Positions 3,278 to 43,810 of a stretch of 64,000 nucleotides of DNA are shown here, in pieces (position 1 is the first letter of the stretch; the number at the start of each line of letters is the position of its first letter). The stretch comes from Candidatus Anderseniibacteriota bacterium (GTDB lineage: Bacteria; Patescibacteriota; Andersenbacteria; UBA10190). Made by a program: the position numbers and the translations under genes. The stretch spans positions 66,182 to 130,181 of the forward strand of contig JBBDZC010000008.1 of the NCBI GenBank assembly GCA_040900375.1. The letters run 5' to 3'. The notes below the pieces were generated by a model. That model searched no databases, was not told the DNA's origin, and saw only the letters and a list, made by a program, of their open reading frames with translations.

Positions 3278-3560
3278 AATTTAGGTAGTATTCCAGGGGA
3301 TAAAAGTGAGGAAAACGCTGTTAATAAAAGAGGGTTATTTCATATGTTATCCCTACTTACTAGAGGTGGGGTAAGTACTTGGGGATATAGTGGCTATTCA
3401 TCCACTCTTTATCCTAAGAATATCTCCAGACTTACACACAGTTTATCCTCAATATAAGACTAGTAACAAAGCTAATAAATAAGTCTTCCCCCAGATTTAC
3501 TCTTACCTACTACTATCTACTACTACCTTTATTAATTAGATATGTTTAAAGAAGAATTGT
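3278..3560. promoter_or_regulatory. dnaA-dnaN intergenic region, candidate oriC (DnaA-box variants plus AT-rich unwinding element)
   Basis: Four TTATCC(C/T)N variants occur here (GGGGATAAA, TTATCCCTA, TTATCCTAA, TTATCCTCA). A very AT-rich tract lies next to the dnaN start. Confidence 0.45.
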
Positions 3561-4664: not shown

Positions 4665-4667
4665 CCT

Positions 4668-26507: not shown

Positions 26508-27461
26508 TTGTTCAATTTCATGGCAAAAGATTTACGAGTAGGTATTGTTGGCTCTGGGGTGGTGGGGCAAGCGACCGGTCGAGGGTTTTTAGCGCATGGT
26601 TTTCCGGTCACGTTTATTGATACTAATCTCAACACCGTGCAGCGTTTGCGCCACGAGGGATTGAGCGCGTACACGCCGAGTGAGCGGGCGGATCAAGCAC
26701 CTGAATTTGATGTCACCATTCTCACCGTCCCGACACCCACACAGAATGGGGAAATTAATCTTCAATATCTTGAAGCGGCCGCGGTGGATCTGGGTAGACG
26801 CTTTAAGCACGCGGCTCACTACCACGTTGTTGTTGTGCGCAGTACCGTCGTGCCGGGAACTACCGAGAAGGTGGTTATTAGTACTCTTGAGCAATATTCG
26901 GGTAAGAAAGCCGGTCGTGATTTTGGCGTCTGCATGAATCCGGAATACCTGCGGGAGAAGAAATCGACCGAGGATTTTGCGCATCCGTGGATTGTGGTTA
27001 TTGGTCAGTACGACCAGCGTTCAGGCGATACCGTGGCTGCGCTCTACCGTGACTTTCAATGTCCTGTGTACCGACTGTCACTCCAGGAAGCCGAGACGCA
27101 AAAGTATGTCCACAATCTTTTTAATGCCGTGAAGATTACATTCTTTAATGAATTCCGCCAGATTTGTGAAAAAGCGCGAGTTAGTGCTGATGCGATTTTT
27201 CCACTTGTGGCTCAAAGCGCTGAAGGCATGTTTAACCCGGAGTATGGGATTAGAAACTTCGGGCCGTTTGATGGCATGTGTCTGCCGAAAGACACCCAGG
27301 CTTTTTTGTCATGGGCCCGTGCTCACGGCTGGGATATGCCGCTGTTGGCGCAGGCGATCGCGGTTAATAACGAACTCGTCGCTCGCCAATCGCGGCCCGC
27401 GCCAGCGGTTAGACAAGCAGCTCGTGACATGGTCGTGGCCCCAAGCGCCGCCGCGTTTTAA
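26508..27461 (+). CDS. UDP-glucose / GDP-mannose 6-dehydrogenase family protein (short, about 317 aa)
   Basis: The product has an N-terminal Rossmann fold (GSGVVG) and the catalytic Cys motif GMCLPKDT. It appears to lack most of the usual C-terminal nucleotide-sugar-binding domain. Confidence 0.7.
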   Translation: MFNFMAKDLRVGIVGSGVVGQATGRGFLAHGFPVTFIDTNLNTVQRLRHEGLSAYTPSERADQAPEFDVTILTVPTPTQNGEINLQYLEAAAVDLGRRFKHAAHYHVVVVRSTVVPGTTEKVVISTLEQYSGKKAGRDFGVCMNPEYLREKKSTEDFAHPWIVVIGQYDQRSGDTVAALYRDFQCPVYRLSLQEAETQKYVHNLFNAVKITFFNEFRQICEKARVSADAIFPLVAQSAEGMFNPEYGIRNFGPFDGMCLPKDTQAFLSWARAHGWDMPLLAQAIAVNNELVARQSRPAPAVRQAARDMVVAPSAAAF

Positions 27462-27476
27462 CCAAGACAGAATGGA

Positions 27477-30269
27477 GTGGTTGATTATCTCGAACAAGCG
27501 ATCGCACAGTCCTGGCTCTTTATTGTTGCCTATTCTCCCCTCGGCATAATTGGGTTGTGGCGCTGGAGTGTCTGGTTGATTAAGAAAGGTTACGCTCGCC
27601 AGTATCAACCAGCTACGGGAGAATTTACGACCTCGGTTGCTGTCATTACTCCCGTTTACAACGAAAATCCCCAGCTCTTTCGTCGAGCGCTCGACTCGTG
27701 GCGCGCTAACAAGGTTAGTGAAATTATTGCGGTGATTGATTATACTGACACCGCCTGCATTGCGATATTTAAAGAATTTGCGCGCCGCTCCCCTGGGGCG
27801 CGCTTAGTGGTTACGGAAAAGCCAGGGAAACGGCCAGCGCTAGTGGAGGGAATGCAGATGGCACGCAGCGAAATTGTGGCCCTGGTTGATAGTGATACGG
27901 TATGGGATAGGGCGACAAAGCGGCAGGCACTGATTCCTTTCCGCGATCCTAAGATTGGCGGGGTCGCCACGCGGCAGAACGTGCTTAAGCCTAAAACTTT
28001 AGCGCAGCAGATCTTTAACGCTCAATTAAATCTTCGCTACCTGGAGGAGATGCCGTTTATGACGGCGCGCGGGGGGAGTGTCGTTACTTGTCTGTCGGGA
28101 CGCACCGCATTTTATCGCCGGGCGGCGGTCATACCCGTGCTTGATAACTTGCTCCACGAAACTTTTTGGGGTCAACCAGTGATTAGTGGTGATGATAAGT
28201 GCTTAACATACTTAGTCGAAGCCCAGGGGTGGAAAGTTGCTTTTCAACAAACGGCCCGTGTGTTTACCCCCGGCACGCCGACGGTGCGTAATTTTTTACG
28301 ACAGCGGTTGCGCTGGACCCGCAATAGTTGGCGGGCAGATTTACGCACGCTAACCCAAGCGTGGGTGTGGCGCCATCCTCGTTTTGCTTGGTACTTGCTT
28401 GATCGCGTCATCCAACCATTTGCCCAACTACTCTCACCACTCTTCTTTATTGTATCCATCCTGCTCGGGTTGGGGGTGCCCGCGGTGATTTTAGCTGGGT
28501 GGTGGCATGTGGGGCGGTTTTTACGGATGTATCCTCACTTGCGCCGACATCCCCGCGATATCGAATTGATCCCGCTGTACATTGTTCTTAATTTCTACTT
28601 GGCCTTGGTTAAAATTTACGCTCTCCTGACTTTGAATCGCCAGGGGTGGATTACGCGGTGGCACCACAGCCGCTTACCCCACGCGCCGCGGGCGCTGCAG
28701 CAGGTGGCAGCTTATGGACTGACAATGAGTATTGTCGGGACGCTGGGCTTAGGTGTTGGTCTCCACGAGCGCATGGTGTTGCAGGCTGCCCAGCACGATA
28801 CCTTGCAGCAAAGTTTGCGACCGCTGTCAGTGACTCCCGTATCGGCGCACGTGGTGGGGGGACTGTCCACCGGCGCGGCCAGCGGGGCAGTAATTGGGCG
28901 TCACGAAGTCCAGGCCGGGGACACGCTTAGTCGCCTAGCCCTGCACTATGGTCTTGAGCCCGAGGTCTTAGTGGCTCATAATGCCGTGCTCTTACCGAGC
29001 CGCAACTATATCGAACCTGGCTTGGTGATTAGTGTCCCCCCGGTCAATGCGCAGCCATCAGCTCCGGTGCGGTACACCACAACGTACCAAGATCAGGGAC
29101 CGCTACGCATCACGTATAATGCCGGTACTCACACCATTGAGGTGCGGGGCCGGGGTCGTCAGATAACATTAGAGGATATTCGCCAGGCCGTGGGTGAGCG
29201 TTACCTGCGTGAAGTCTCACCCCAGCAGTGGTACTTGACGGCCAATCTTACCTTGAAAGCGGGCGTGAGTTTACGACTTGAGCAACAGGAAGTAGCGTGG
29301 CTTAAACTTAAGAGTGAGCCGCATGATTTTGTGGTTATTACAGCCGAGAGCGGCCACATGTTGATCACCGGTACGAAACTTACTTCCTGGGACGAGACGC
29401 GCCAGAATGTGGACGAGACGCTAGCCGATGGCCGCAGCTATATCGTGGCGCGGGGGCACGCGCGGTTTGATATTTTTTCAGCGGAGCTAGCGTACTTAGG
29501 CTATCCGCCAGAGCCGCAGGGACCGGCGGGGACCACAGGGGTAACATGGAGACTCACCGACCAAGAAGAAGCTTTACTGACTGGGGAAGTACGTAATAGC
29601 CGCTTTCACCATAACTACCACGGGGCGCACATCGCGGGCGGGACGGGTATGGGCTGGTACGATAACCAATTTTATGACAACACCCAAGCCGGTTTAGCTC
29701 TCGATCTTGGCACGAGTCATGCTGTGATTGAGCGCAATACTCTGTCGCGTAATGGGGAACAGGGCATCCTTCTCCGGGCCCAGTCTCGCTATAACCAGAT
29801 CGTGAATAATGAAGTGGCGTACCACCGCGACGGCATTGCGGTGAATGCTGCAGTTGATAACATAATTTCCGGCAATCATCTGCGTGCTAATCAGCGCGGA
29901 TTACATATCGGCCAGCGTGTCCAGCGAACGCTTGTTACTAGTAATCACTTTCACAGTAATGAACACTCGGGGATCTCGGCAGCGGCGACCGCCGGGCATA
30001 ATCGCATTCAGGACAACCTTTTCGAGAAGAACCGTCTCGCCTTGTACTTGGCGGCTTCGAATAATGAGATTAGTGGCAATACCGTGCACGCCAACCAGAT
30101 TGGGATGTACTTACAGTCGCCGGCGAGTAATAATCGCTTATATCAAAACAAAATTGCCGGTAACGAAAGTTACGGGCTTTACATTAAAGCCTTAGCGCAC
30201 GAGATCAATTATGCAGGAAACAATGCCATCAAGGGTAATCGCATCAATGCGGTGGCCGCGGTTCTTTGA
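27477..30269 (+). CDS. Processive GT2 polysaccharide synthase fused to a LysM domain and a C-terminal right-handed beta-helix (C5-epimerase/lyase-like) domain
   Basis: The GT2 part has DSDTVWD and QRLRW (Q-x-x-R-W), with TM helices on either side. A LysM segment follows (VQAGDTLSRLALHYGLEPEVLVAHN). The C-terminus carries repeated NxxxN/G beta-helix units (RFHHNYHGAHIAGG…). Confidence 0.8.
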   Translation: MVDYLEQAIAQSWLFIVAYSPLGIIGLWRWSVWLIKKGYARQYQPATGEFTTSVAVITPVYNENPQLFRRALDSWRANKVSEIIAVIDYTDTACIAIFKEFARRSPGARLVVTEKPGKRPALVEGMQMARSEIVALVDSDTVWDRATKRQALIPFRDPKIGGVATRQNVLKPKTLAQQIFNAQLNLRYLEEMPFMTARGGSVVTCLSGRTAFYRRAAVIPVLDNLLHETFWGQPVISGDDKCLTYLVEAQGWKVAFQQTARVFTPGTPTVRNFLRQRLRWTRNSWRADLRTLTQAWVWRHPRFAWYLLDRVIQPFAQLLSPLFFIVSILLGLGVPAVILAGWWHVGRFLRMYPHLRRHPRDIELIPLYIVLNFYLALVKIYALLTLNRQGWITRWHHSRLPHAPRALQQVAAYGLTMSIVGTLGLGVGLHERMVLQAAQHDTLQQSLRPLSVTPVSAHVVGGLSTGAASGAVIGRHEVQAGDTLSRLALHYGLEPEVLVAHNAVLLPSRNYIEPGLVISVPPVNAQPSAPVRYTTTYQDQGPLRITYNAGTHTIEVRGRGRQITLEDIRQAVGERYLREVSPQQWYLTANLTLKAGVSLRLEQQEVAWLKLKSEPHDFVVITAESGHMLITGTKLTSWDETRQNVDETLADGRSYIVARGHARFDIFSAELAYLGYPPEPQGPAGTTGVTWRLTDQEEALLTGEVRNSRFHHNYHGAHIAGGTGMGWYDNQFYDNTQAGLALDLGTSHAVIERNTLSRNGEQGILLRAQSRYNQIVNNEVAYHRDGIAVNAAVDNIISGNHLRANQRGLHIGQRVQRTLVTSNHFHSNEHSGISAAATAGHNRIQDNLFEKNRLALYLAASNNEISGNTVHANQIGMYLQSPASNNRLYQNKIAGNESYGLYIKALAHEINYAGNNAIKGNRINAVAAVL

Positions 30270-30336
30270 AGAGATTATGACAAATATAGTATTGCCTTTA
30301 TGGTACCGCTACGGTTTACTAAAAAGTAGACAACGT

Positions 30337-31941
30337 ATGCGATCAACTATTTTCCTCGCCAAGGCTCGTGGGGGATTGATGTCTCGGTTAGGGCTTGTAG
30401 CCCTGGTCTTGTTCGTCATCGGGGGATTGGGGGTATTTTCTGCCTCGGCTGCCGCCACGCCTTGTACGAGCACTGATATTCGTTGGGCGAGTTCATCCAA
30501 TACCATCTACATTTTTGGGGAAAACGTTGTGTGTACCCTAATGGACATTGACCAACTGGTACCCAAGGCGAATCTCGCCCTAGTTAATCCGACCGAGCAT
30601 ATCTGGTTTCTGGGTACTAACTTAGTGGTGCAACAAGGGGCCACGTTGCAACTCCATGGCACCAGCATTGGTGGCGATGTGGACTATTTGCGACTCAAGA
30701 GTAACAACACCTCTACTACCCATAGCATTGTCTGGATCCGGGCTGATTGGGGAATAATTGATATCGACACGACCAAAATTACTTCTTGGGATGAGGCCAC
30801 GGGCGAAACCGATAAAGAATATGAACAATATCGGCGATCATTTATCCAAGCCCGGTCACGGTTGGCGCTCGATGGTGTGACCCCTAATGAATCGCACATG
30901 AATATTAAGAATAGTGAAATTGGGTACTTGGGCTACGCGGGGGCGGAAGCTTACGGCCTATCATGGAAGGTCAATGGGAAAGAAGAAAATCTGTTTGATT
31001 TGGTCAATATCTATGGCGAGGTGATTAATAATCGCATTCACCACAACTATTTTGGCGCTTACACCTACGGCGCCGAGGGCATGCACTGGCAAGGCAATGA
31101 ACTTGATAATAACGTGGTCTATGGTCTCGACCCCCACGACAACTCCGATAACTTAGTGATTGAAGATAACGACGCTCACCACAATGGTTCGCACGGTATT
31201 ATCTGCTCGCGTTTCTGTGACCACTTAATCATTCGCAATAACGTGGCGCGGGATAACGGCGGCAACGGCATCATGCTGCATCGGCTCACCGACTTTTCTT
31301 TAATAGAAGGGAATGAAACCTTTAACAACAGTGATTCGGGCATCGCCGTTTTTGACAGCCACCACAACACGATTCGCGGCAATAGAAGCTATGGCAATGC
31401 CAAGGGCATACGCTTCAGCGTGGGCAGTTCGCATAACCTAGTAACCGAAAACCAGATTCACGATAACGATTCTTATGGCCTTTACTTCTATCAGGGCAGT
31501 GACGCCCCCACGAATTCAGGCGACAGCGGGCGGCCCCACGATAATCAGTTCATTAATAATGAAGTCTCGGGCAGCGGCATCTATGGTCTTAAAATGAAGG
31601 AGACTGACGATAACCTCTTTCAAGATAATCACTTTACGGATAACGGCCGATCTCTCTTAATTGAGTTGAGTAGCCACAATCGTTTCGAGAACAATACGAT
31701 TGAAGACAACAGCGAAACGGGGATCGTCTTAAGCGGGGCTTCCGACCACGAACTTGTTGGCAACCTCATTGAACACAACGGTGACGTGGGTATCTATCTG
31801 AAGAAGGAAAGTGACAATGCCGTCATTACCAATAATACTATCCGCCAACACAATAAGTACGGGATTCGGGTAGTGGATAGCGAGGGGGTGACAATCGAGG
31901 ACAACATCTTTGAAGATAATGGTCAGGATATCAGTTCGTAG
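30337..31941 (+). CDS. Secreted right-handed parallel beta-helix protein (AlgG/NosD-like)
   Basis: The product has a signal peptide or TM segment and many beta-helix repeats (…HHNYFGAYTYGAEGMHWQGNELDNNVVYGLDPHDNSDNLVIEDNDAHHNGSHGI…). I chose the start at Met 30337 because the ORF track start at 30211 overlaps the upstream gene. Confidence 0.65.
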   Translation: MRSTIFLAKARGGLMSRLGLVALVLFVIGGLGVFSASAAATPCTSTDIRWASSSNTIYIFGENVVCTLMDIDQLVPKANLALVNPTEHIWFLGTNLVVQQGATLQLHGTSIGGDVDYLRLKSNNTSTTHSIVWIRADWGIIDIDTTKITSWDEATGETDKEYEQYRRSFIQARSRLALDGVTPNESHMNIKNSEIGYLGYAGAEAYGLSWKVNGKEENLFDLVNIYGEVINNRIHHNYFGAYTYGAEGMHWQGNELDNNVVYGLDPHDNSDNLVIEDNDAHHNGSHGIICSRFCDHLIIRNNVARDNGGNGIMLHRLTDFSLIEGNETFNNSDSGIAVFDSHHNTIRGNRSYGNAKGIRFSVGSSHNLVTENQIHDNDSYGLYFYQGSDAPTNSGDSGRPHDNQFINNEVSGSGIYGLKMKETDDNLFQDNHFTDNGRSLLIELSSHNRFENNTIEDNSETGIVLSGASDHELVGNLIEHNGDVGIYLKKESDNAVITNNTIRQHNKYGIRVVDSEGVTIEDNIFEDNGQDISS

Positions 31942-32011
31942 ACTCGGCGCACGACTGCAGACATTTAGCACTCGCCGTATCTCTCCCCCGCTCGCGTGGG
32001 GAGTAATTTTA

Positions 32012-33202
32012 ATGAGCAGCGTGGGGCTGGGTTTCCTGGCTTATAGCGCCGGGCTTTTTCTGGCGTCGCCACTTTTGCTCTCGCTCGCGCACTCGCGCAC
32101 ACTGGAGTCTCTGCCGGCGAGTGTCATACTCTCCACAGAAATAGTAGGGGAAGTACTCCTTGAAGGATCACCGCCCGTGGCGGATATCCAGACGCCCGCT
32201 TTGTTGCCGCCCAGTCTATTGCCAAGTCCGGTGCTTGCCGCCACTATCTTGGTGAGTCCCACTGGTGTGGATGCGCCTGACCGGGGGATAGGTGGTCGTC
32301 CGTTGCGGACTGTATCGCAGGCTCTACAGCGCGCCCGGCCAGGAGATGTGATCGAGGTGCAAGCGGGCGAGTACCAGGAACACATAGTGACCACGACTGC
32401 GGGGCAAGCGCAGCAGCCAATTACGCTCCGGGCGCAGGGTCGCGTGGTTTTCAAGGGTGATCAAAAGCACGGGCGGCTGATGGAGGTACGGCACGACTAT
32501 TACGATATTTCGGGCTTTGAATTTACGAACGCCGATATTCTCCTGTGGCTTGAGGGTGCCAGGTACGCCAAGATTACCAATAACTATTTTCATGAAGCCC
32601 AGGGTGAATGTGTGCGCTTCAAATATCACTCGACGCATAATCTCTTTGCGCATAACCGCGTAGAATTTTGCGGGCGAGAGGATTTTGGCGGCGGCGGTGA
32701 TGGTAAAAATGGCGAGGGCCTCTACCTCGGTACTGCTCCCGAGCAGCTTGATCGCAACCCAACGCCCGAGACTGACCAGACCAACGCGAACACTATTCGC
32801 GCTAATACGTTTAATACCCGGGGGAACGAGTGTGTTGATATTAAAGAAGGAGCGAGCGAGAATGTTGTGGAGTTTAATGACTGTACGGGCCAACGCGATT
32901 CCGAGAGCGGCGGGTTCGACGCCCGCGGCAGCGGTAATATTTTTCGCTACAACACCAGCTACGGTAACCTCGGGGCCGGGATCCGGTTCGGCGGCGATGA
33001 GGAAAGTGATGGTATTAACAACCAGGCCTACGGCAACGAGCTCTACCAGAATGAAAATGTGGCCATAAAAGTAATGCGCTTACCCCAGGGGCTTATTTGT
33101 GGTAACAAAGTTTCTGCAAATGAGAGCGGGTTTTCTAATAACAAGAGTATCCAGAATCCAGCTTGTCCTTTTCCGCTCTCGCCACCAGGCCGGCCTTCTT
33201 AA
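32012..33202 (+). CDS. Secreted pectin-lyase-fold (DUF1565-like) beta-helix protein
   Basis: A signal peptide is followed by RTVSQALQRARPGDVIEVQAGEY, a typical N-terminus for lyase or hydrolase beta-helices. More beta-helix repeats follow. I chose the start at 32012. Confidence 0.6.
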   Translation: MSSVGLGFLAYSAGLFLASPLLLSLAHSRTLESLPASVILSTEIVGEVLLEGSPPVADIQTPALLPPSLLPSPVLAATILVSPTGVDAPDRGIGGRPLRTVSQALQRARPGDVIEVQAGEYQEHIVTTTAGQAQQPITLRAQGRVVFKGDQKHGRLMEVRHDYYDISGFEFTNADILLWLEGARYAKITNNYFHEAQGECVRFKYHSTHNLFAHNRVEFCGREDFGGGGDGKNGEGLYLGTAPEQLDRNPTPETDQTNANTIRANTFNTRGNECVDIKEGASENVVEFNDCTGQRDSESGGFDARGSGNIFRYNTSYGNLGAGIRFGGDEESDGINNQAYGNELYQNENVAIKVMRLPQGLICGNKVSANESGFSNNKSIQNPACPFPLSPPGRPS

Positions 33203-33670: not shown

Positions 33671-33713
33671 AGCAGGAAGTTTCTTTTCCAGCAAGGAACT
33701 TCCTGCTTTTTCT
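33671..33713 (+). terminator. Rho-independent terminator candidate (bidirectional hairpin)
   Basis: A perfect 11-bp stem (AGCAGGAAGTT / AACTTCCTGCT) is followed by TTTTT on the plus strand. It lies between convergent genes. Confidence 0.5.
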
Positions 33714-33726
33714 TAAGGTTTCCTTA

Positions 33727-34827
33727 TTACTCAAGGCAGGCGTTAAATTGTTGGACTTGCTGATTGAGGCGTGTCATTAAAGCTTTGGCGGCCTCAATCT
33801 TACTATTTAAAATTGTTACCTGCTCGTTATAGATGCGCTGTTGTTCTTGTAATACTCTCACCGCCTGATTATAGGCAGTTTGTTGCTGCCGCGCTTGATC
33901 AACTAACGCTTCGCCTTCGGCTTGGAGCCGTTGGCCTTCATCCCAATACGGCTGGGCTTGCTCGCGGGAGCCAGTTTCTTGGTAGATTTTATTCCCTTCC
34001 TCTATTTTAGCGTTACCGGCGGCAATCGTTGCCTCGGCTCGGGCGATCAACGCTTCAATTGCAGTCAATTCCTGGGCGAGGCTGTCTTCTTGGCTCTCAA
34101 TTTCTTGCCGCGCCTGGTCGAGGGTGGCACTTAAGGCGGCGGTTTCTGCTTCAATTTGTTCAAGTTGGGTGCGCAGACTTTCATCGGGTAGTGGACAGGT
34201 GCCGAGCGGCAGCGCGAAGGTTTGCACTGCAAGCCACGTGCGCTGGCCCTCGAAGGTGCCGGGAGCGGCGGCAATGCCAATCTCACTAAATTTCTCGTGC
34301 AAAATGTTCTCGCGGTGGCCAGGGCTATCCATCCAGGCTTGGACGAGGGCAACGTCGCTGCCAAAATTGCCGAGCGCCAGATTTTCACCGACGCGAATGT
34401 ACTCATAGCCTACGCCCTCGACCCAATCAGCCGGGCCTTTGCCGTCAGGCCCGACATGTTCGAAATATTGCTGGGCAAACATGTCCTGCAGCTTTTGCGC
34501 GGCGGCGCGATTGAGCAGCGTGTTGGCCGTGAGCGGCGCCTGACCGGCGACTTGTCGGTGTGCATTGGTTTCCTGCAGGATACCGCCCTGGGTGAGCGTA
34601 CCAGCGTGTGGCTGATCAGGGCCCCGCAGGGGTGGGGGCGTTATGATGCGGCGGGGGTCGTCAAGCAATTCGTCGAGGGAGGGCAGCGCCGCTAAGTCAT
34701 CGAGCACTACCCGCTGTTGGGGTGAGGACTGATACCATGTTATGCCGAGGATACTCGCCAAGATGATCAGGGCGATAACTATAACTGCTGCCAGCGGCGT
34801 AATGTATCCCCTTGAAGTCATCAACAT
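33727..34827 (-). CDS. Membrane-anchored CAP/SCP/PR1-like domain protein with a long C-terminal coiled coil
   Basis: The product has an N-terminal TM segment and a CAP motif (…VQAWMDSPGHRENILHEKFSEIGIA…). The C-terminal 170 aa or so are Q/E/A-rich heptad repeats. Confidence 0.7.
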   Translation of the reverse strand: MLMTSRGYITPLAAVIVIALIILASILGITWYQSSPQQRVVLDDLAALPSLDELLDDPRRIITPPPLRGPDQPHAGTLTQGGILQETNAHRQVAGQAPLTANTLLNRAAAQKLQDMFAQQYFEHVGPDGKGPADWVEGVGYEYIRVGENLALGNFGSDVALVQAWMDSPGHRENILHEKFSEIGIAAAPGTFEGQRTWLAVQTFALPLGTCPLPDESLRTQLEQIEAETAALSATLDQARQEIESQEDSLAQELTAIEALIARAEATIAAGNAKIEEGNKIYQETGSREQAQPYWDEGQRLQAEGEALVDQARQQQTAYNQAVRVLQEQQRIYNEQVTILNSKIEAAKALMTRLNQQVQQFNACLE

Positions 34828-35005: not shown

Positions 35006-36088
35006 TCAGGGTGCGGTGTTGTGGAGATCAACTGAAATATTGATATCTCCAGAAGTTACCGTGCCGCCGGTGGTGTTGTCTTCCGCCGTGTTGCCACCAG
35101 TGGTGGCGTCAACAGTAATAGTGTTGCTGATTTGTGTCTCTGTCGTGCTGGTTATATCGCACTCACTGCTAACTTCGGTATTGTTTTCATTCGTCGAGCC
35201 AGGGCCGGTATTTTCATTGCGCTGCTCAATATTTACATCGAGATCACAGTTTGCAGCGGGTAAGGGAGAAGGTGAAGGACTGACGCTGGGCTCTGGAGAG
35301 GGACTGGGAGAAACTGAAGGCGATGGCTCGGTTGAAGGCGTAGGTGAGGGAGAGGGGAAAATAGCGGACGTGGAAAATTGACTGTTAGTTATAGCTGCGG
35401 AGTCTGAAAAAACTGCTAACGTGGCAGGGACAGTCACCAAAAGAACGGCAAAGGCTGTCGCTCCTTTAAGTAATAAGCGCGGTTGGCGCAGCTGTCGCCA
35501 AGCCTGCTTCATAGCGGCGAGTTCTTGCAGGATAACTAGCGTTGCCGGCAGCAGAATGGCAAGCGTAAAACCGGTTTTAGTGTGGAGCCAGCGCAGTAAG
35601 TATCCTAGATACGGAATAGACATATCGGCTGCGCCGATCACGAAGCCGTGCGGCACTAGTTTAGAATCAGCAACATTATTAGCGTCACCTTGAGTGCGAT
35701 AAGCTAGGCCTTGCTTCGTGGTGACATTCTCAATAATGCGGTGCGTGGTAGTGCCTTTGGCCGAACGAAATGTAATGATGTCGCCGGGGGCATAGGCCAG
35801 CTGCTCTTTCACGGTAATGACGGCACCGGTGGCGATGACGGGCTCCATGCTGCCAGAGCGCACGACGAAGAGTTCGGTAGTACGAACGGTATGCCATATC
35901 CCGGCGCTGGCGGTAATTACTGCTACGAATAGGAAAAATGTTACTACTTGCCTGACGCGGGATTGAGAGGTAGTAGGCAAGCGAATTTGGCTGTGATGTT
36001 GCTGCAACGGGCGAAACTCTGCGTAAGTAATCACGCGTTCGGAAGTTGGCCGTATTTGTGGTGGTTGAATGCTATCCATGAGGGACAA
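35006..36088 (-). CDS. SipW/Sec11-type (archaeal-type) signal peptidase I with a C-terminal substrate-like extension
   Basis: The N-terminus has a TM segment and the SGSMEP catalytic motif, then a second TM. A signal-peptide-like segment follows (MKQAWRQLRQPRLLLKGATAFAVLLVTVPATLAVFSDSAAITNSQFST), then a Pro/Ser linker and one copy of the TGGN…NTTGG…SGD repeat. Confidence 0.75.
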   Translation of the reverse strand: MSLMDSIQPPQIRPTSERVITYAEFRPLQQHHSQIRLPTTSQSRVRQVVTFFLFVAVITASAGIWHTVRTTELFVVRSGSMEPVIATGAVITVKEQLAYAPGDIITFRSAKGTTTHRIIENVTTKQGLAYRTQGDANNVADSKLVPHGFVIGAADMSIPYLGYLLRWLHTKTGFTLAILLPATLVILQELAAMKQAWRQLRQPRLLLKGATAFAVLLVTVPATLAVFSDSAAITNSQFSTSAIFPSPSPTPSTEPSPSVSPSPSPEPSVSPSPSPLPAANCDLDVNIEQRNENTGPGSTNENNTEVSSECDITSTTETQISNTITVDATTGGNTAEDNTTGGTVTSGDINISVDLHNTAP

Positions 36089-36156
36089 GGGCGATTGTTT
36101 TAATCACCCTTGCTGCCTCACCGATTAACCTTTTAGTTAGCAATTATTCGGCTTAT

Positions 36157-36825
36157 TCAAGGGAGGGGTGTTGGTTCGGGTGTTGCTTCAGGTGTGCTCT
36201 GTGTGCCAGTAAACTCGGCATCGAAGTTGACACTTTTATTAGTAGCTTCGCTATTAATATCTAGGGTAGCTGTCATGGTACATCTGGCTTCATCGGAGCC
36301 TTCTCCATCAACTGTGCCGTCGTTCGGCCCAAGTGTGCCAAGGCCACCAGTTGGAATACCGCCATCATTTTCCCAGTCAGACAATGGCTTGGCGTCAACT
36401 GATCCATCTCCCAGAGTCTCACCATCATCACCGACATCGCATGAGAATCCAACGGAAAGATCTTCTTTGATGTCAGTGGAGTTGGCAGGAAGTGTCTGGA
36501 TGTTCTCAATAAGAACGCTAAGATCAAGGCTGACCTCACTTTCAGCGCTGCTATTATTTTTTAGCCAGAATTCAAATTCTGAAGTTTGACCCGGCAGCAT
36601 GTTTTCAACTACAGGACCCTGAATACTATTAAGGTATGCTACAGGGCTATTGCCTTCCTGTGCAATCAGAAGATCTACGTTACCGGTGGCAAATGTGCTG
36701 TTTTCAAGCGTGGCAGTGTCAGAGAAGAGTGCACTTGAGACACCGGCAACTGCTGCAAGTACCGCAAGGATAACAGCGCCGCTTACAAGCAAGCGCATAG
36801 TAGGATGAATATTTGTTAAGGTCAT
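36157..36825 (-). CDS. TasA/camelysin-family (peptidase M73-like) secreted protein with a SipW-cognate signal peptide
   Basis: After the N-terminal hydrophobic region comes …SSALFSDTATLENSTFATGNVDL…, the motif characteristic of SipW substrates. A GGAGGTG ribosome-binding site lies 8 nt upstream. Confidence 0.7.
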   Translation of the reverse strand: MTLTNIHPTMRLLVSGAVILAVLAAVAGVSSALFSDTATLENSTFATGNVDLLIAQEGNSPVAYLNSIQGPVVENMLPGQTSEFEFWLKNNSSAESEVSLDLSVLIENIQTLPANSTDIKEDLSVGFSCDVGDDGETLGDGSVDAKPLSDWENDGGIPTGGLGTLGPNDGTVDGEGSDEARCTMTATLDINSEATNKSVNFDAEFTGTQSTPEATPEPTPLP

Positions 36826-37183
36826 ATCATGTCACCTCCTCTCAAGAAAGTTCTCAAGATCGAGGGTGGCGCACAGGGTGGCAATGGAAAGTGGTGAAAG
36901 AGTTCGGCAGTGTGTTTCACAAAAATAAAAGAAGGATCAGTCACGAGATCCCCCTCATGCCCTCCTGCACTTCTAGTTACTTATTGACTAGCGTATCGCA
37001 TTGCCACAAAAGCACAATGTTTTTGCGTGATGTTGGAGCCTGGCGGAGGGAAGATTCTTTCACTGTTTACGGGGAGAAATTGGTTGTCAGTTCTGGAAAA
37101 GCGGTGTTACACTGATACCACGGGGGCGAACAGGGTGTAATTTAACAAAAGTCGACGTTCATCTGGTAATTGACTGCGAGGAG

Positions 37184-37735: not shown

Positions 37736-38362
37736 ATGTCGTTCAAGAATGTAGTGCAATTGTTGTTGCTCGGAACTGTGACGCTTAGCCTGGTTGCAGT
37801 TATCACCCCGAGCGCGGCGGCTTCGCATATTGATTGGGAACAACGTCGCGCACAGCGGGAAGCGGAGCGGGAGGCGCGGCGCCTGGCGCGCGAGAACCCG
37901 AGCCCGACGTGCCGGTGTTCAGCCAGCTTGGGCTTGGCGCGGCCGAGTCTGCAGTTTACTAGTGGCGGGGGCTTAACTTTGACGCCCCGGGTTGATGTCA
38001 GTATTCGCACACGCGGTGATCACGAGGCGCCACCGTGGGTGGCCGAGTTGGCATATAGCGGCACGACCGAGTATGAGTCGGATGATGTGAGTGTGCCGGC
38101 GGGAGTGGCATTTAGCGGGACACAGCAGGTAGCGGCCGGATCATGCGGTGATACGTATACTTTCCGCGGACTGGCGTTACCAGATGTCAGCCTCACTGGC
38201 TTGATCCGCTCCCTGGTGGGTGTAGATCAAGAACTTGAAGGAACGGTGCGGCTGCACGCGACGCTCAATAGCTGCGAGCTGGATGAGGAGCAGCGTCAGT
38301 TTAGCTTCCGGGTACAGGAGTTTGGGAATCTGAAGATAGGCGGGTGGCGGTCGGCGCGGTAA
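37736..38362 (+). CDS. Hypothetical secreted protein
   Basis: The product has a signal peptide (…LVAVITPSAAAS). I recognise no domain. I chose it over the overlapping minus-strand ORF. Confidence 0.45.
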   Translation: MSFKNVVQLLLLGTVTLSLVAVITPSAAASHIDWEQRRAQREAEREARRLARENPSPTCRCSASLGLARPSLQFTSGGGLTLTPRVDVSIRTRGDHEAPPWVAELAYSGTTEYESDDVSVPAGVAFSGTQQVAAGSCGDTYTFRGLALPDVSLTGLIRSLVGVDQELEGTVRLHATLNSCELDEEQRQFSFRVQEFGNLKIGGWRSAR

Positions 38363-38632: not shown

Positions 38633-39748
38633 ATGAAGAATACATTTCGCGCACTCTTTGGCGTATCTGCACTCGCACTCTTACTAGTTGCCGCTCCTGT
38701 GTTGGCAGCAGAAGTAGATGTGACTGCCGAGAACGTCATGACGGGAGCTGATTCTGACAACAACAACGACACTGATGTTGACAACGACTTAGATGTTAAT
38801 GTTGACAACGTTGGCAATGTGAGCAACTCTGCCAGCGCGGCCGTAACCACGGGCAACAATGAGCAGAACGAAAACACCGAAGGCGGTGACGTGGACTCTG
38901 GCGCGGTTGATGCCTCCACTGACTGGGAGAGCATCGTCAATGCCGGGGCGGCTTTGTTGGACAATGGGGATGGCCTAGAAGTGTCTGCTGATTTCAGCAA
39001 CGACACAACGGGCGCTGATTCCGACAACGATAATGATCTCGATGTAGATCATGATGTTGATCTGGACTTACGCAACATCGCTAATATTCTGAACTACTTA
39101 GCATTGTCTGCCAACACTGGCGACAACGAGCAGAACAAGAATACAATGGGCGGCGAGCTCACGACGGGTGATGTAACTGTTGATTCAATGATTGCCAATT
39201 TGGCAAACAATGGCGCCGGTTACGCTAGCCTTGGCACCACCCAGGTGGATGTCAGCGGCAGCAATCACCTCACGGGAGCTGATTCTAACAACAACAACGA
39301 TGTTGATGTTGACAACGACTATGATCTTGATGTTGACAATACTGCCAACCTCACGACAAGCGTTGTGATTAATGCCCATACGGGCGGCAACGAGCAGAAT
39401 CGCAACACTCAGGGCGGCTCTATGACTACGGGCAATGTGGAAGTTTCAACGAAAGTTGAAAACTCTGCTAACAACAATTCCAGCATTGGGATTGGTGGCT
39501 CAAGTCTCGCCGTCACGGTAGAGGCTTCCAATGACACAACCGGTGCTGATTCCGACAATGATAATGATGTAGACGTTGATAACAACGTTGACATCGATGT
39601 CGACAATACCGCTAATGTCTCGAATAATCTGACCGTAAGCGCCAACACTGGCGACAACGAGCAGAACAAGAACACCCAAGGCGGTGGTGTTGAGACTGGT
39701 TCAGTCTCCATCAACTTTGAGGCGTTCAACGAAGTCAACAGCAATTAA
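38633..39748 (+). CDS. Secreted Asp/Asn-rich protein made of four tandem repeats of about 90 aa (unclassified repeat family)
   Basis: The product has a signal peptide (…APVLA|AE). Each repeat reads TGADSDN(D/N)ND-(D/V)x-acidic DxDxD run …NTG(D/G)NEQN(K/R)NT(Q/M)GG…TG(D/N)V. It has a strong ribosome-binding site. Confidence 0.7.
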   Translation: MKNTFRALFGVSALALLLVAAPVLAAEVDVTAENVMTGADSDNNNDTDVDNDLDVNVDNVGNVSNSASAAVTTGNNEQNENTEGGDVDSGAVDASTDWESIVNAGAALLDNGDGLEVSADFSNDTTGADSDNDNDLDVDHDVDLDLRNIANILNYLALSANTGDNEQNKNTMGGELTTGDVTVDSMIANLANNGAGYASLGTTQVDVSGSNHLTGADSNNNNDVDVDNDYDLDVDNTANLTTSVVINAHTGGNEQNRNTQGGSMTTGNVEVSTKVENSANNNSSIGIGGSSLAVTVEASNDTTGADSDNDNDVDVDNNVDIDVDNTANVSNNLTVSANTGDNEQNKNTQGGGVETGSVSINFEAFNEVNSN

Positions 39749-39829: not shown

Positions 39830-42769
39830 ATGAACAATCGTTTGCGCCGCAGTCTGACAAGGATTAAGAAGAGCCTGGTACTCGGAGTAATAGTCTGGTT
39901 GAGCGTGGTAACCCCAGCGGTGACTTTTGCGCAAAGCGTGGATGCAACGGAGGAAACCGCCAGTGCGACTGAATGTACCGGGGCCGGTTGCGGCCAGGGC
40001 AGTGATCAGGGAGTGGATCAGGGAAGTGGCCAGGGTGGCCTGTCGGCCGAGGATCTCGGAGCTGATGAAACGGGTGAATTGCCGGAAGGGGTCATCGATA
40101 CCCGCCAGGGCGCCAGCCAGGGCTCGACTAATGGCGTCACGGCAGCCAACACGAACACTGGTACGAATTCGACAAACACAGCCGGCGTGACAGCGACTAA
40201 TAGTACCACGACTGGTATTGCGAACACGGCTCTGGATACCACGAATGCCGCCGCGACGGGAACAACTGGCGGCAACACGAGTAGTAACAACACGGGGGGC
40301 ACCGGGATTATCACGGGTTCAGCCGGGATTGGTGTTACCCAAGTTAAAAATGATAATACCGCCACGGTGAACGGCACCGCTGGTTTACAGGTAGAAGGCC
40401 ACAACGGCAATTACGTGGGTGATTTGAACTTAGGTTTTGGGGCGGGGACAGCTAATTTATCAGGCGGCAGTTCAATCCGCGCGGTCAATGAGGCGACGGG
40501 GGCGGGCTCAACTAATAACGTGGGCATTGCCACGCGGACAGAAGAGCTCAATGAGGTGCAAAACGATGGGCGGATTGATAATATCTTGGATTTAGCGGCG
40601 ATTACGGGACAAAATGTGGCGAATAAGAATACGGGGGATGCAGTGATCACCACGGGTGATGCAAATGTGGCAGCGACTCTTGTTAATTTGTTAAATACAA
40701 CGGTGATTAATGGCGACTTGTGGATTACGGTGGCAGACATTTTTGGCAACCTCGAAGGCAACATTAATCTGCCTGACTTCTCGAGCTGGGTCGCGGCGCA
40801 TCTCCTGGGGATTGAGGTGGCGAATGAAAACACTGGGACAAACTCAACCAATGCGATTGCGGTTGATGTGTCAGATCGCGCGACCACGACGATTGATAAT
40901 GACGCTGATATTACCACGACGGTAAATGCGGAGGCTGTTACTGGACAAAACGAAACGATGGCTAATACCGGCGGAGCCGAGGTTACCACGGGCGATGCCC
41001 AAGTTTCAGCGGGTGCTATTTCGATCGCCAATACCACCGTAGAAGGCGGCAACTGGGGTTTGGTGATTGTCAACGCGCTCAATCGCTGGCTCGGGTTTTT
41101 AGTGGGCGATAGCGGCGAAGTCCGCGCTTTATCGCAAGACGAGACGTTGCATGAGATTGCCGCGCGTAATACTAATACGGGGGCGGATTCTGATAACACG
41201 ATTGGGGTGGAGGTAGAACGAGAACGTACCACGACGGTTGCCAACGACGCGGTGATTAATAACGAGATCAACGCGCAGGCGATTACTGGCCAGAATGAGG
41301 CGAATAAGAATACGGGTGGGGCGCAGATTGCTACCGGGGATGCCAATGTGCAGGCCACGACGGTGAATATTGCTAATACGACCGTTAAGGACGGCTCACT
41401 CTTTATTGCCGTCGTTAACATTTTTGGCGACTGGCTTGGTGATCTCTTCTATGGCGGCAGCGCTCTGGGCACGACCGCGACTGGGCCCGCGAGTGTGGTG
41501 GTGGCCGAGGCGCGCAGTAGCGAGACGGGGGCGGACTCGGCTAATACCATTGATATCAACTACGATCGCCACCAGGAGACAACCATTGATAATGAAGCTG
41601 ATTTGGCCACGACCCTGAATGCCACGATTGATACAGGCAGCAACCGGGCCAGCCGTAACACCGGCGGGGCGCTGATTGATACGGGGGATGGGGCCCTGGC
41701 GCTGCATGCACGCTCGGCCGCCAACTTGACGGGTATCGCGGGCGCGGCGGGCGTGGGTATCGCGATCCAGGGTTTAAACGAGACGACGGGCGCTAATTCC
41801 CAGAATCGGATCCGGGCGCACATTAATGATGAGCATATTATGACAATTAATAACGACGCTAATGTGAGTACTGTCATTGGTGATCGTCAGGTGCCGGCGA
41901 TGGTTAATACGGGCAATAATGTCGCGAACCAGAATACTCTCGGGGCGATGATTATGACCGGTGATATTGCGGCCGAGGTGGCGATCCATAACCTGGTCAA
42001 TCAAGTCTTGGTTGCTTTAACCGGGCAGGGCATTGTTGTTGACGCCGATTTTGCCAATCGTCTTACGGGGGCGTTGTCGACGAATAGTAATGAGCTGACG
42101 GTTGAACAACAGGCACTGCTGGCAGTGCTCAATCGCGGCCTCGTTGATAATATTATTAACTTGCTCCTGAATACCGGTGGCAATACGGCGAATGAAAACA
42201 CCGGCGGCGGGGCAATTTCAACAGGTGACATTTGTGTTGAGGGTGTGGTGAAAAATGTGGTTAATGACGTGAGCGCCACGGGCGTGGGCGGAGCCTCGCT
42301 TGATCTTGATCAGGAGGCTCATCTGCACACCGCTGCCCAGCTCGGTGCGACCACCGGAAACAACGAGGCTCATCGCAATACGGGCAAGCAGCAGGTGACT
42401 GATGCGGAAGGTATCTGTCCCAAGCTCGCTGTGGTAGTCACCCCGTCACCATCGCCATCACCAACTCCCGCCCCGGAAGAAGGTCAAGGCGGCGGTGAGG
42501 AAGCGGGCGCAGAGGCACATGACGAGGAAGAAGCCCCGGCAGCCGCGGGTGGGGCCGCGGAAGCAGAACCAAGAGTTGCCGCAGCGGTAGAGATGCCACC
42601 CGTAGCCGAGCGGATCTTGCGTCGTTTCCCGGTGGCGGGCGGAGAACAAGCCGCCATGATTTTGCAAGGCAAAAAGCGTCTACCGTGGCCTTTCTTTGTG
42701 GCCATGAGCCTGCTGTTAGTGGGTACAGCGTGGCGCTTTGATATTCGTGCCCGTGCGGCACAGCGGTAG
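39830..42769 (+). CDS. Large secreted surface protein (979 aa) with about 10 copies of the same ~75 aa repeat, a Pro/Ser linker and a C-terminal hydrophobic anchor
   Basis: The product has a signal peptide (…AVTFA|QS). Repeats recur as …A(I/V)TGQNExxxNTGGAx(I/V)xTGDAxVxAxxVNxxNTTV…. The C-terminus reads …TPSPSPSPTPAPEE… then an acidic Ala-rich stretch, WPFFVAMSLLLVGTAW and RFDIRARAAQR. Confidence 0.75.
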   Translation: MNNRLRRSLTRIKKSLVLGVIVWLSVVTPAVTFAQSVDATEETASATECTGAGCGQGSDQGVDQGSGQGGLSAEDLGADETGELPEGVIDTRQGASQGSTNGVTAANTNTGTNSTNTAGVTATNSTTTGIANTALDTTNAAATGTTGGNTSSNNTGGTGIITGSAGIGVTQVKNDNTATVNGTAGLQVEGHNGNYVGDLNLGFGAGTANLSGGSSIRAVNEATGAGSTNNVGIATRTEELNEVQNDGRIDNILDLAAITGQNVANKNTGDAVITTGDANVAATLVNLLNTTVINGDLWITVADIFGNLEGNINLPDFSSWVAAHLLGIEVANENTGTNSTNAIAVDVSDRATTTIDNDADITTTVNAEAVTGQNETMANTGGAEVTTGDAQVSAGAISIANTTVEGGNWGLVIVNALNRWLGFLVGDSGEVRALSQDETLHEIAARNTNTGADSDNTIGVEVERERTTTVANDAVINNEINAQAITGQNEANKNTGGAQIATGDANVQATTVNIANTTVKDGSLFIAVVNIFGDWLGDLFYGGSALGTTATGPASVVVAEARSSETGADSANTIDINYDRHQETTIDNEADLATTLNATIDTGSNRASRNTGGALIDTGDGALALHARSAANLTGIAGAAGVGIAIQGLNETTGANSQNRIRAHINDEHIMTINNDANVSTVIGDRQVPAMVNTGNNVANQNTLGAMIMTGDIAAEVAIHNLVNQVLVALTGQGIVVDADFANRLTGALSTNSNELTVEQQALLAVLNRGLVDNIINLLLNTGGNTANENTGGGAISTGDICVEGVVKNVVNDVSATGVGGASLDLDQEAHLHTAAQLGATTGNNEAHRNTGKQQVTDAEGICPKLAVVVTPSPSPSPTPAPEEGQGGGEEAGAEAHDEEEAPAAAGGAAEAEPRVAAAVEMPPVAERILRRFPVAGGEQAAMILQGKKRLPWPFFVAMSLLLVGTAWRFDIRARAAQR

Positions 42770-42904: not shown

Positions 42905-43810
42905 ATGCCGACTGCTCTACCGAAAAAATACCTTGCCCTTGGGGCCGTGCTACTGGTGGCGGTGGCGGGACTCGTCATTGCCAGTTTTATGGTGGCCCAG
43001 CGGTTCAATAAGCAAGCCCTGGCGCAAGAAGCCTGGCTGAAATTGACGGCAGCGCCGAGCTACCATGCCCGCGCGGAATTACTACTCAATCTTCCGGTGC
43101 GCCTGCAAGGGCGCGAGCGCCCACTCAACCAGATTACACTCCGTACCGAAGGCGATGTTGTCCGCGATACCACCGGTGTACCAGAATTCACGGGCACGCT
43201 CTTTACCGAGGCTCGCGGACGAGGGACCGTGTTGTTTGCTGATGGGCAGCTTCGGCTACTGGCCGAGGCTGTTGCCTTTCGTTTGGAGAATTTGCCGGTG
43301 CTGGTTAACCCTACGGGGAGCTTAGTTGAGAAGTGGACTTATGTAGATAGCCGGTTGCTGACAACACGTAACGGCCCCGAGATTCGCCAAGTTTTGAGCG
43401 ACGTTTTTAGCCAGCTGGCGTATCAGGGTAAAGAGCAGGATAATGGCGGGGCGATCTGGCGCTACGCGGGGAGCTTAAGAGCGGAAGATGAAGCCCGGCT
43501 GATCGCTACCTTGCAGCACCAAGTTTCGGGCAATCATGGCTACCATATTATTGCTCGTCTCTTACAAGCCTACGATGTGCAATCGCTGGTGGTTGATGTG
43601 GCGACCGAGACACAGGAGGTGCGGACAATAACGGTGACGTTTGTGATGCCAGAAAGTGCCTCATCGGCGAGTGCGCTCGCGGTCTTGAATTTAGCTTTTA
43701 GTGATTACGGGAAAGCAGTCGTGATTGATCGCCCCGTCAAGCAGTTGACGGTCCGTCCGGAAATTTTTTCTCGCATTGTGGGTACGGGCGAAATTTTGCC
43801 TCAACCATAA
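42905..43810 (+). CDS. Hypothetical membrane-anchored protein
   Basis: The product has an N-terminal TM segment (LALGAVLLVAVAGLVIASF). I recognise no domain. Confidence 0.45.
   Translation: MPTALPKKYLALGAVLLVAVAGLVIASFMVAQRFNKQALAQEAWLKLTAAPSYHARAELLLNLPVRLQGRERPLNQITLRTEGDVVRDTTGVPEFTGTLFTEARGRGTVLFADGQLRLLAEAVAFRLENLPVLVNPTGSLVEKWTYVDSRLLTTRNGPEIRQVLSDVFSQLAYQGKEQDNGGAIWRYAGSLRAEDEARLIATLQHQVSGNHGYHIIARLLQAYDVQSLVVDVATETQEVRTITVTFVMPESASSASALAVLNLAFSDYGKAVVIDRPVKQLTVRPEIFSRIVGTGEILPQP

Follow-up and report, generated by a model that had tools for sequence, protein, structure and literature searches.

What does a TasA-like gene lying immediately upstream of a SipW-like signal peptidase gene do in a candidate-phylum bacterium, and if it builds a fibre, what takes the part of the minor component TapA? 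The question is raised by contig JBBDZC010000008.1 of Candidatus Anderseniibacteriota bacterium (assembly GCA_040900375.1), of which positions 66,182 to 130,181, a stretch of 64,000 nucleotides, were analysed and are called the window here. A first-pass annotation made from the letters alone had picked out the TasA-like gene (36157..36825, minus strand) and the peptidase gene that follows it, and overlooked both the fused C-terminal tail of the peptidase and the conserved cluster around the pair. We propose that the gene probably encodes the subunit of a TasA-type filament on the surface of this member of the Andersenbacteria, within the Candidate Phyla Radiation (CPR), that the filament depends on Sec and SipW, and that a TapA-like strand is carried on the tail of the peptidase itself. 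The elements of the subunit gene are:

36157..36825, minus strand: TasA-superfamily secreted subunit, 222 residues, ATG start (from the open reading frame list and family matches)
36832..36840, minus strand: Shine-Dalgarno sequence AGGAGGTGA of the TasA-like gene, with its GGAGG core 9 nt before ATG 36825 (read from the sequence)
36730..36825, minus strand: SipW-type signal peptide, residues 1-32, predicted cleavage VSSA↓LFSD (from TIGR04088 and the TasA alignment; ↓ marks a cleavage site)
36670..36729, minus strand: mature N-terminal strand motif LFSDTATLENSTFATGNVDL, residues 33-52, presumed donor strand (conserved over 17 homologues)

The open reading frame is 100% identical to an NCBI entry of equal length, 'TasA family protein', from a Candidatus Andersenbacteria metagenome-assembled genome (MAG). 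As had been claimed, it is a TasA/camelysin-family protein with a SipW-type signal: HMMER matches it to Pfam Peptidase_M73 (PF12389) over residues 15-136 with 26.6 bits (cut-off 22.5) and to NCBIfam TIGR04088 (cognate_SipW) with 19.7 bits (cut-off 19), in agreement with the NCBI annotation of the same MAG. The strong ribosome-binding site reported for the gene is also present as described. Its homologues (n = 16, 35–65% identity) share a conserved N-terminus and a conserved pair of cysteines, C129 and C182. Given these 16 homologues and the subunit-then-peptidase order found in 8/8 loci examined, a chance reading frame is excluded, and the subunit is confirmed as a genuine conserved secreted protein. 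The reading frame at 36194-36589 on the plus strand and similar antisense frames were rejected as shadows of the coding strand.

The predicted cleavage site aligns in register with TasA TWA↓AFND...FASGTLDL, where the mature N-terminus of TasA is seen in PDB 8AUR, and we infer that the subunit signal is cleaved at about Ala32↓Leu33. The strand motif LFSDTATLENSTFATGNVDL aligns to TasA residues 28-46, a span that takes in the Bacillus subtilis TasA donor strand (residues 28-38; PMC9674648), and its conservation extends well beyond the cleavage site, to T47, G48 and L52. On this alignment, residues 33-52 are predicted to function as a donor strand.

The peptidase lies directly downstream and, as previously suggested, reads as co-transcribed with the subunit:

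35006..36079, minus strand: signal peptidase I of the SipW/SEC11 type, 357 residues including a C-terminal tail fused to it (TIGR02228; NCBI start ATG 36079)
35510..35947, minus strand: peptidase core, comprising the first transmembrane helix, the catalytic domain and the second transmembrane helix, residues 45-190 (AlphaFold2 predicted local distance difference test, pLDDT, 84-97)

If a TTG start is used the frame reaches 36088 (35006-36088, minus strand). The protein scores 85.8 bits against TIGR02228, the archaeal-type signal peptidase I (cut-off 51.85), and 102.8 bits against the Bacillus SipW equivalog NF046067, below the 190-bit cut-off of that model; judged by these scores it is SipW-like and not an orthologue of Bacillus SipW in NCBI's strict sense. 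Ser77, His113 and Asp132/138 are invariant or nearly so in alignments of 12, 22 and 50 peptidase sequences. The best Foldseek matches are human SEC11C/SEC11A (7p2q_A, E 3.6e-6; 7p2p_A, E 1.9e-5), and phmmer likewise finds SEC11A (E 1.5e-4); the enzyme is of the endoplasmic reticulum (ER)/archaeal type (S26B), like SipW. We hold the identity of the pair, a TasA-family protein and a SipW-like peptidase, with high confidence.

The peptidase runs for 167 residues past its second membrane helix, through a basic loop, a hydrophobic segment, a strand motif, a linker and a module with two cysteines:

35414..35509, minus strand: internal signal peptide, residues 191-222, with n-region KQAWRQLRQPRLLLKG (5 basic residues) and h-region ATAFAVLLVTVPATLA
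35357..35413, minus strand: second TasA-type cleavage site and strand motif TLA↓VFSDSAAITNSQFSTSAIF, residues 223-241 (from a hidden Markov model, HMM, and homologue alignment)
35252..35356, minus strand: Pro/Ser-rich linker, residues 242-276 (read from the sequence)
35009..35251, minus strand: one 'NTG' repeat module with two cysteines, 81 residues, 277-357 (BLASTP to neighbours)

The stretch TLA↓VFSDSAAITNSQFST of this tail is the counterpart of SSA↓LFSDTATLENSTFAT in the subunit. When an HMM was trained on nothing but the N-terminal regions of 17 subunit homologues, it picked up the tail motif, with no other match among the 371 open reading frames of the window. The tail is present on the peptidase in all eight loci, and its NTG module, which matches the repeats of two neighbouring proteins of 371 and 979 residues (BLASTP E 1e-6 to 1e-8), is conserved in P0019-P0021, L001 and L006.

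The architecture is not confined to these loci. We scanned 1.84 billion cluster representatives in full and assessed the 150 SipW-type clusters (50% identity) nearest to the peptidase; a tail was called where the motif followed the catalytic domain and scored at least 7 bits with the tail HMM; 150 reversed sequences served as the control. The motif was found in 50 of the 150 clusters and in 0/150 reversed controls. Among 43 tail sequences that lay outside the HMM training set, position -3 of the cleavage site is T, S or A and position -1 is A, S or G in every case, with Asp at +4 in 38 and Asn at +11 in 40. The h-region is hydrophobic in 50/50 tails and the n-region is net positive in 43/50. 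The tail in the window has the layout of a type I signal (KQAWRQLRQPRLLLKG, ATAFAVLLVTVPATLA and T-L-A↓V) and is predicted to be cleavable, and because the C-terminus of SipW is cytoplasmic the topology of the tail fits that of a cleavable signal.

What follows the motif varies. Lamin-tail domains (LTD) account for 13 of the 50 passengers, RTX, dockerin and Peptidase_M73 domains occur once each, and the rest are unassigned. One further locus has the same parts as separate genes:

L009 1-2575: unfused counterpart, with a TasA-like gene, then a free-standing 299-residue pre-protein, then a 176-residue SipW

The pre-protein reads MRIIFLLMTICVISIDLTNA↓SFFDTEITNGNVIKAGVW... and carries the same strand motif followed by FN3-like and LTD domains, while the SipW ends directly after its second helix; what the SipW-LTD fusions combine is here naturally split. 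Given the variable passengers and this unfused version, the tail looks like a SipW substrate in its own right, joined to the enzyme on repeated occasions. Evidence for the taxonomic breadth of the architecture is limited to a handful of source names (Andersenbacteria, Saccharimonadales and Clostridia), and a pattern search of genome contigs based on a 12-sequence alignment added a single locus, L008, from a Parcubacteria MAG. The literature that we searched, in which subscription journals were thinly covered, held no description of a SipW with a C-terminal extension, fusion or lamin-tail domain. The fused architecture is therefore common and, as far as we could find, undescribed.

We propose the following mechanism. 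The 222-residue protein would be exported by Sec, and the SEC11/SipW-type peptidase encoded by the adjoining downstream gene would remove its signal at about Ala32↓Leu33. The freed N-terminal strand (LFSDTATLENSTFATG...) would then enter the beta-sandwich of the next subunit to give a donor-strand-exchange polymer, as in TasA; we consider fibre formation by this route fairly likely. A high output of subunit and a low output of peptidase would be favoured by the consensus ribosome-binding site of the former and by a stem-loop that hides the start of the latter, which has no such site. The tail would be a built-in SipW substrate, cleaved by its own or by a neighbouring catalytic domain and acting in TapA's part, as a minor component that consists of the strand only and gives the first donor strand. 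Its NTG module would link the fibre with the NTG-repeat proteins that the cluster contributes to the cell surface, one of which is membrane-anchored. We equate the tail with TapA since there is no tapA in the window and the only other TasA-type strand there is that on the tail, which lacks an acceptor body. Cleavage of the tail seems to us somewhat better founded than not; its service as initiator or anchor is put forward tentatively.

More speculatively still, many SipW-type peptidases (that of the window and about a third of its 150 closest clusters, from CPR bacteria and Clostridia) may be self-processing polyproteins that nucleate or anchor TasA-type fibres. Each would hold in cis an internal signal and a donor strand on a variable passenger (an NTG module, a lamin-tail, RTX or dockerin domain, or a whole TasA-like domain). 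Cleavage would free a strand-only initiator or cap at the place where subunits are processed, and the passenger would fix the fibre to the cell surface. On this doubtful possibility, the functions of TapA and SipW would be merged in one gene.

The gene pair alone is routine, being one more divergent TasA-family subunit with a SipW-like peptidase in a phylum where homologues have already been counted. The nucleation and anchoring of TasA-type fibres are still debated, even in B. subtilis, and the natural, widespread joining of a TapA-like strand to the enzyme that does the processing indicates that both functions act in one place. The fusion also offers a simple handle for experiment, with one protein, one catalytic serine and one predicted neo-N-terminus.

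The control of peptidase output assumed in this mechanism centres on the spacer between the two genes. The spacer had been given as 68 bp, which holds for the TTG start at 36088; with the NCBI start (ATG 36079) it is 77 bp. The imperfect hairpin noticed in it is real:

36074..36125, minus strand: intercistronic stem-loop, with a 12-bp inner stem at 36085-36113 and outer stems of 6 and 3 bp

The inner stem contains two G-U pairs and closes on a 5-nt loop, the minimum free energy of the whole is -34.4 kcal/mol (z -4.6), and 1/200 shuffled sequences folds equally well. The outer stem GUGAGG/CCUCAU covers the A and the U of AUG 36079, the start codon of the peptidase; this start is not preceded by a Shine-Dalgarno sequence. 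A stem-loop occupies the equivalent position in 6/8 loci (the window, L001, L002, L003, L005 and L006). That of L005 is recognisably homologous, with one compensatory change from G-C to A-T and one G-U pair turned to A-U, and it retains the pairing of the outer stem with the start codon. Rfam found no family in the window, and the RNA upstream of the subunit gene, its 5' leader, shows no unusual degree of structure (z = 0.56). A terminator-like hairpin followed by a T-run does lie within that leader, at 36929-36956 on the minus strand, and could be a leader attenuator.

The first-pass annotation had suggested that the spacer hairpin sets the stoichiometry of subunit and peptidase. This is plausible in view of the sequestered start codon and the recurrence of the stem-loop, and it is reasonable to suppose that peptidase output is reduced relative to that of the subunit. 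We favour translational masking as the means, possibly with stabilisation of the transcript in addition. The hairpin could instead be a partial transcription terminator, or a stabiliser of the 3' end of the subunit mRNA, rather than a translational mask, and we regard this as a possibility of some substance, though the less favoured one. The stem lies just 3' of the subunit stop codon, the equivalent stem in L006 is followed by a T-run, and hairpins commonly terminate major-subunit genes in pilus operons. In the window, however, the terminator scan did not call the hairpin and no T-run stands 3' of the stem, the sequence there being CCCTCATGGATAGC, while the pairing with the peptidase start codon, shared with L005, is more readily understood as masking. 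The lack of a stem-loop at this position in L007 and L008 counts against our interpretation. The two roles are not mutually exclusive.

It is also possible that the tail is never cleaved, with the third hydrophobic segment acting as a permanent anchor and the motif as a pseudo-substrate that fills and regulates the active site in cis or as the base of a stalk that displays NTG or LTD modules. Several observations weigh against our own interpretation here. The AlphaFold2 model of the tail has a pLDDT of only 45-60, does not predict the third hydrophobic segment as a helix, and places the motif, at this low confidence, as short strands near the catalytic domain. TIGR04088 fell below its cut-off on all three peptidase tails to which it was applied (best 13.3 bits), for which reason our own HMMs with reversed-sequence controls were used. 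The matching of tail strand to subunit strand within the eight loci is marginal (P = 0.053) and is not used as evidence. In addition, a second, non-catalytic role that depends on the C-terminus is attributed to B. subtilis SipW (Terra et al. 2012, as cited in PMC9674648). Against an uncleaved tail stand the small residues at -3 and -1 in 43/43 sequences, together with n- and h-regions typical of cleavable signals, and the existence in L009 of the module as a free-standing protein with an N-terminal signal beside a short SipW, which is hard to fit to a purely cis-regulatory role. We therefore consider a permanently uncleaved tail rather unlikely.

The remaining doubt concerns the subunit and how far its similarity to TasA reaches. 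Strong similarity is confined to three parts: the signal peptide, the strand at the N-terminus, and the ~75 residues with which the body begins. As a reference we used 111 TasA/CalY proteins retrieved with a B. subtilis TasA query that had been checked against PDB 8AUR. At full length, hhalign aligns the family to this set with 90% probability (E 1.6e-6, Q15-128/T10-114), the alignment stopping at subunit residue 128. With bodies only, 57 collinear columns align in the same register (P = 0.002), at a probability of just 13%, centred on the PG(D/Q)...F.F..N.S strands. The AlphaFold2 model of the subunit is a confident beta-sandwich (pLDDT 85; predicted template-modelling score, pTM, 0.77). Foldseek finds its best PDB matches among FimA pilins (E 1e-4 to 1e-3), along with the cannula subunit 9h8b of Pyrodictium (probability 0.91); the template-modelling scores (TM-scores) are low, at 0.3-0.45. 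Cannulae have been placed within the TasA superfamily, with matches to FimA/PapA sub-domains (bioRxiv 2024.12.30.630787), and the fold matches are compatible with these published findings.

Other results count against kinship to TasA. When the first 52 residues are removed, 0/10 family members match M73 with HMMER, even at E<=10, and only 3/17 full-length relatives match it at E<=0.01. Similarity to TasA is undetectable in residues 129-222, where the conserved cysteine pair lies. PDB sequences searched with the single subunit and with the family profile returned no TasA chain, and TasA is outside the top 50 Foldseek matches in the PDB. Weak matches to avidin and spidroin in the sequence search were dismissed as noise. 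The comparison of a structural model with TasA, proposed earlier as a check, has given a beta-sandwich without TasA among its nearest matches, and similarity appears to extend beyond the signal motif, but only narrowly, being seen with hhalign and in none of the 10 truncated members with HMMER. Our reading is that the N-terminal half of the subunit is homologous to TasA/camelysin and that the C-terminal half is a divergent elaboration, which makes the subunit a distinct family inside the TasA superfamily.

These limits leave some room for the view that the 222-residue protein is a monomeric beta-sandwich, secreted or wall-associated (an adhesin or a matrix-binding protein), that uses the SipW-type export signal yet forms no polymer. 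It would account for the concentration of detectable TasA similarity in the signal and N-terminal region and for the absence of TasA from the top Foldseek matches, and since many different passengers (LTD, RTX, dockerin) carry the same signal, its presence is by itself no sign of a fibre. Yet the best fold matches are all subunits of strand-exchange filaments, the N-terminal strand is conserved past the cleavage site to T47, G48 and L52 and can be aligned with the donor strand of TasA, and the position as first cistron, read as highly expressed, before a translationally masked peptidase is what would be looked for in a major structural subunit. A monomer is in our judgement unlikely. A camelysin-type metalloprotease, suggested only by the Pfam family name Peptidase_M73, is rejected, as the mature protein (residues 33-222) contains zero His (the sole one, residue 7, is inside the signal peptide) and so has no HEXXH or other zinc site, and the type member of the family, TasA, is a structural fibre protein (PMC9674648).

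The strand-exchange filament proposed here is a variant of the known TasA-SipW system, comprising the fused architecture and a conserved CPR cluster with an unassigned repeat family. It resembles the B. subtilis tapA-sipW-tasA operon (8AUR/5OF1) in its secreted beta-sandwich subunit with an A↓(A/L)F(N/S)D...F..G..DL N-terminus, its dedicated ER/archaeal-type peptidase in the operon, its monoderm-type envelope and its proposed minor component with a look-alike N-terminal strand. The N-terminus of TapA resembles the TasA donor strand and nucleates fibres, and TapA has been proposed to supply the first strand (PMC9674648, PMC10151520). The first-pass annotation had gone further and seen the logic of the Bacillus operon itself, which does not hold: the order is subunit then peptidase and not sipW then tasA, there is no free-standing tapA in the 64-kb window, where the only other TasA-type signal is inside the peptidase, and a strand like that of TapA is found joined to the C-terminal end of the peptidase. 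The C-terminal half of the subunit is moreover unrelated in sequence to that of B. subtilis TasA and carries the cysteine pair, and the cluster adds NTG-repeat, CAP and two unassigned proteins. The expectation of amyloid-like fibres must also be revised, since TasA subunits polymerise by donor-strand exchange and the resulting fibres are not amyloid (PMC9674648). Nor is the locus unexpected, as had been thought, given that PF12389 homologues were previously reported in Patescibacteria (PMC9245690).

Likeness to other systems is more partial. The B. cereus sipW-tasA-calY (camelysin) locus shares the PF12389 family and the SipW-dependent signal, whereas the window has no paralogous calY (L006 has two paralogues) and no CapP/BC1280-type factor was seen. 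Archaeal AbpA, AbpX and CanX are donor-strand-complemented subunits of jelly-roll or Ig-like fold, often encoded beside a signal peptidase I gene (bioRxiv 2024.12.30.630787). Like these TasA-superfamily filaments the window has a divergent subunit near a peptidase, with cannula 9h8b among the best fold matches, although the system is bacterial (CPR) and the likeness is one of fold, not of sequence comparison. The chaperone-usher type 1 pilin FimA, the best Foldseek match (E 1e-4), is Ig-like and completed by the N-terminal strand of its neighbour, but its system has a chaperone, an usher and an outer membrane, which the window system is without, and any relationship is likely to be at most deep, or convergent. 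The Streptococcus pyogenes SipA/LepA-type homologue (4N31, among the fold matches) is a signal-peptidase fold inside a pilus operon and is needed for fibre assembly. SipA is catalytically inactive and serves sortase pili, while the peptidase in the window has Ser, His and Asp intact and the assembly is not sortase-based.

The pair belongs to a conserved cluster of seven genes, four of which lie on one strand and are divergent from the subunit, peptidase and CAP genes (a hairpin and the distant dnaA-dnaN-recF set are listed with them):

33727..34827, minus strand: CAP/YkwD-domain protein, its C-terminus a long coiled coil, encoded by the final gene of the minus-strand unit (PF00188, E 4.9e-14)
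33671..33707, no strand assigned: 15-bp hairpin, 20 nt after the CAP stop codon, with a T-run following on the plus strand and an A-run preceding
37736..38362, plus strand: conserved 208-residue secreted protein with four cysteines, ending GGWRSAR, divergently transcribed
38633..39748, plus strand: 371-residue secreted protein with about 4 NTG repeats (orthologues 54-60% identity)
39830..42769, plus strand: 979-residue secreted NTG-repeat protein with about 8 repeats and a C-terminal membrane anchor
42905..43810, plus strand: conserved 301-residue protein with an N-terminal membrane helix (L005 and L007 have orthologues at 42-43% identity)
1874-5831, plus strand: dnaA-dnaN-recF, the origin-proximal set, 31 kb from the subunit-peptidase locus

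Across L005, L006 and L007 the orthologues show 33-60% identity. L005 retains 7/7 of the cluster genes, L007 retains 6/7 (no CAP gene follows its peptidase) and L006 retains 5/7; the ~300-residue gene was not seen in the L006 locus, and an 857-residue gene at the position of the ~950-residue one reaches the end of that locus and falls outside the comparison. In L005 the CAP orthologue is the next gene after the peptidase; in L006 it comes further along the gene string, behind an extra 192-residue NTG-repeat gene. The hairpin at 33671-33707 is likely to be a bidirectional terminator that closes the minus-strand unit. The 208-residue protein has no match in Pfam or NCBIfam and has orthologues of 33-51% identity at the same position in L005, L006 and L007; orthologues of the 979-residue protein are 50-55% identical in L005 and L007, and the 301-residue protein has no Pfam match. 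The NTG unit, of ~90 residues with the core A.TG.N.A..NTGG....TGD, is defined by the 371- and 979-residue proteins, neither of which has a match in Pfam, NCBIfam or PDB sequences. The cluster had been described as next to the replication origin, from which it is separated by the 31 kb between it and dnaA-dnaN-recF.

CPR bacteria are attached to other cells and mostly uncultured, and the seven-gene cluster is a concrete candidate for a surface structure other than a type IV pilus in these organisms, containing as it does two abundant-looking repeat proteins without database matches. If the NTG module does dock the fibre on the NTG-repeat surface proteins, the whole would be an attachment organelle of host-dependent ultra-small bacteria.

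Some minor features of the cluster and its surroundings may be recorded. By eye, the NTG motif recalls curlin repeats. The 371-residue gene contains a 24-nt tandem repeat (2.2 copies, 39288-39339) that encodes part of an acidic D/N-rich stretch. The 979-residue protein of the window (42600-42769) and that of L005 (2636-5554, minus strand) both end in 'RFPVAGGE', ~15 residues, a membrane helix and a basic tail, a C-terminus that could be a sorting or anchoring signal; in L007 a sortase gene lies at the end of the cluster. In L006 (4977-7498) two tandem TasA-like paralogues precede the peptidase, and the extra 192-residue NTG protein after it has two repeats. Finally, genes for a UDP-glucose dehydrogenase, a GT2-LysM-beta-helix protein and two beta-helix/NosD proteins (26508-33202, plus strand) separate PolA from the CAP gene in the window, and since PolA directly abuts CAP in L006 they look like an inserted polysaccharide/surface block.

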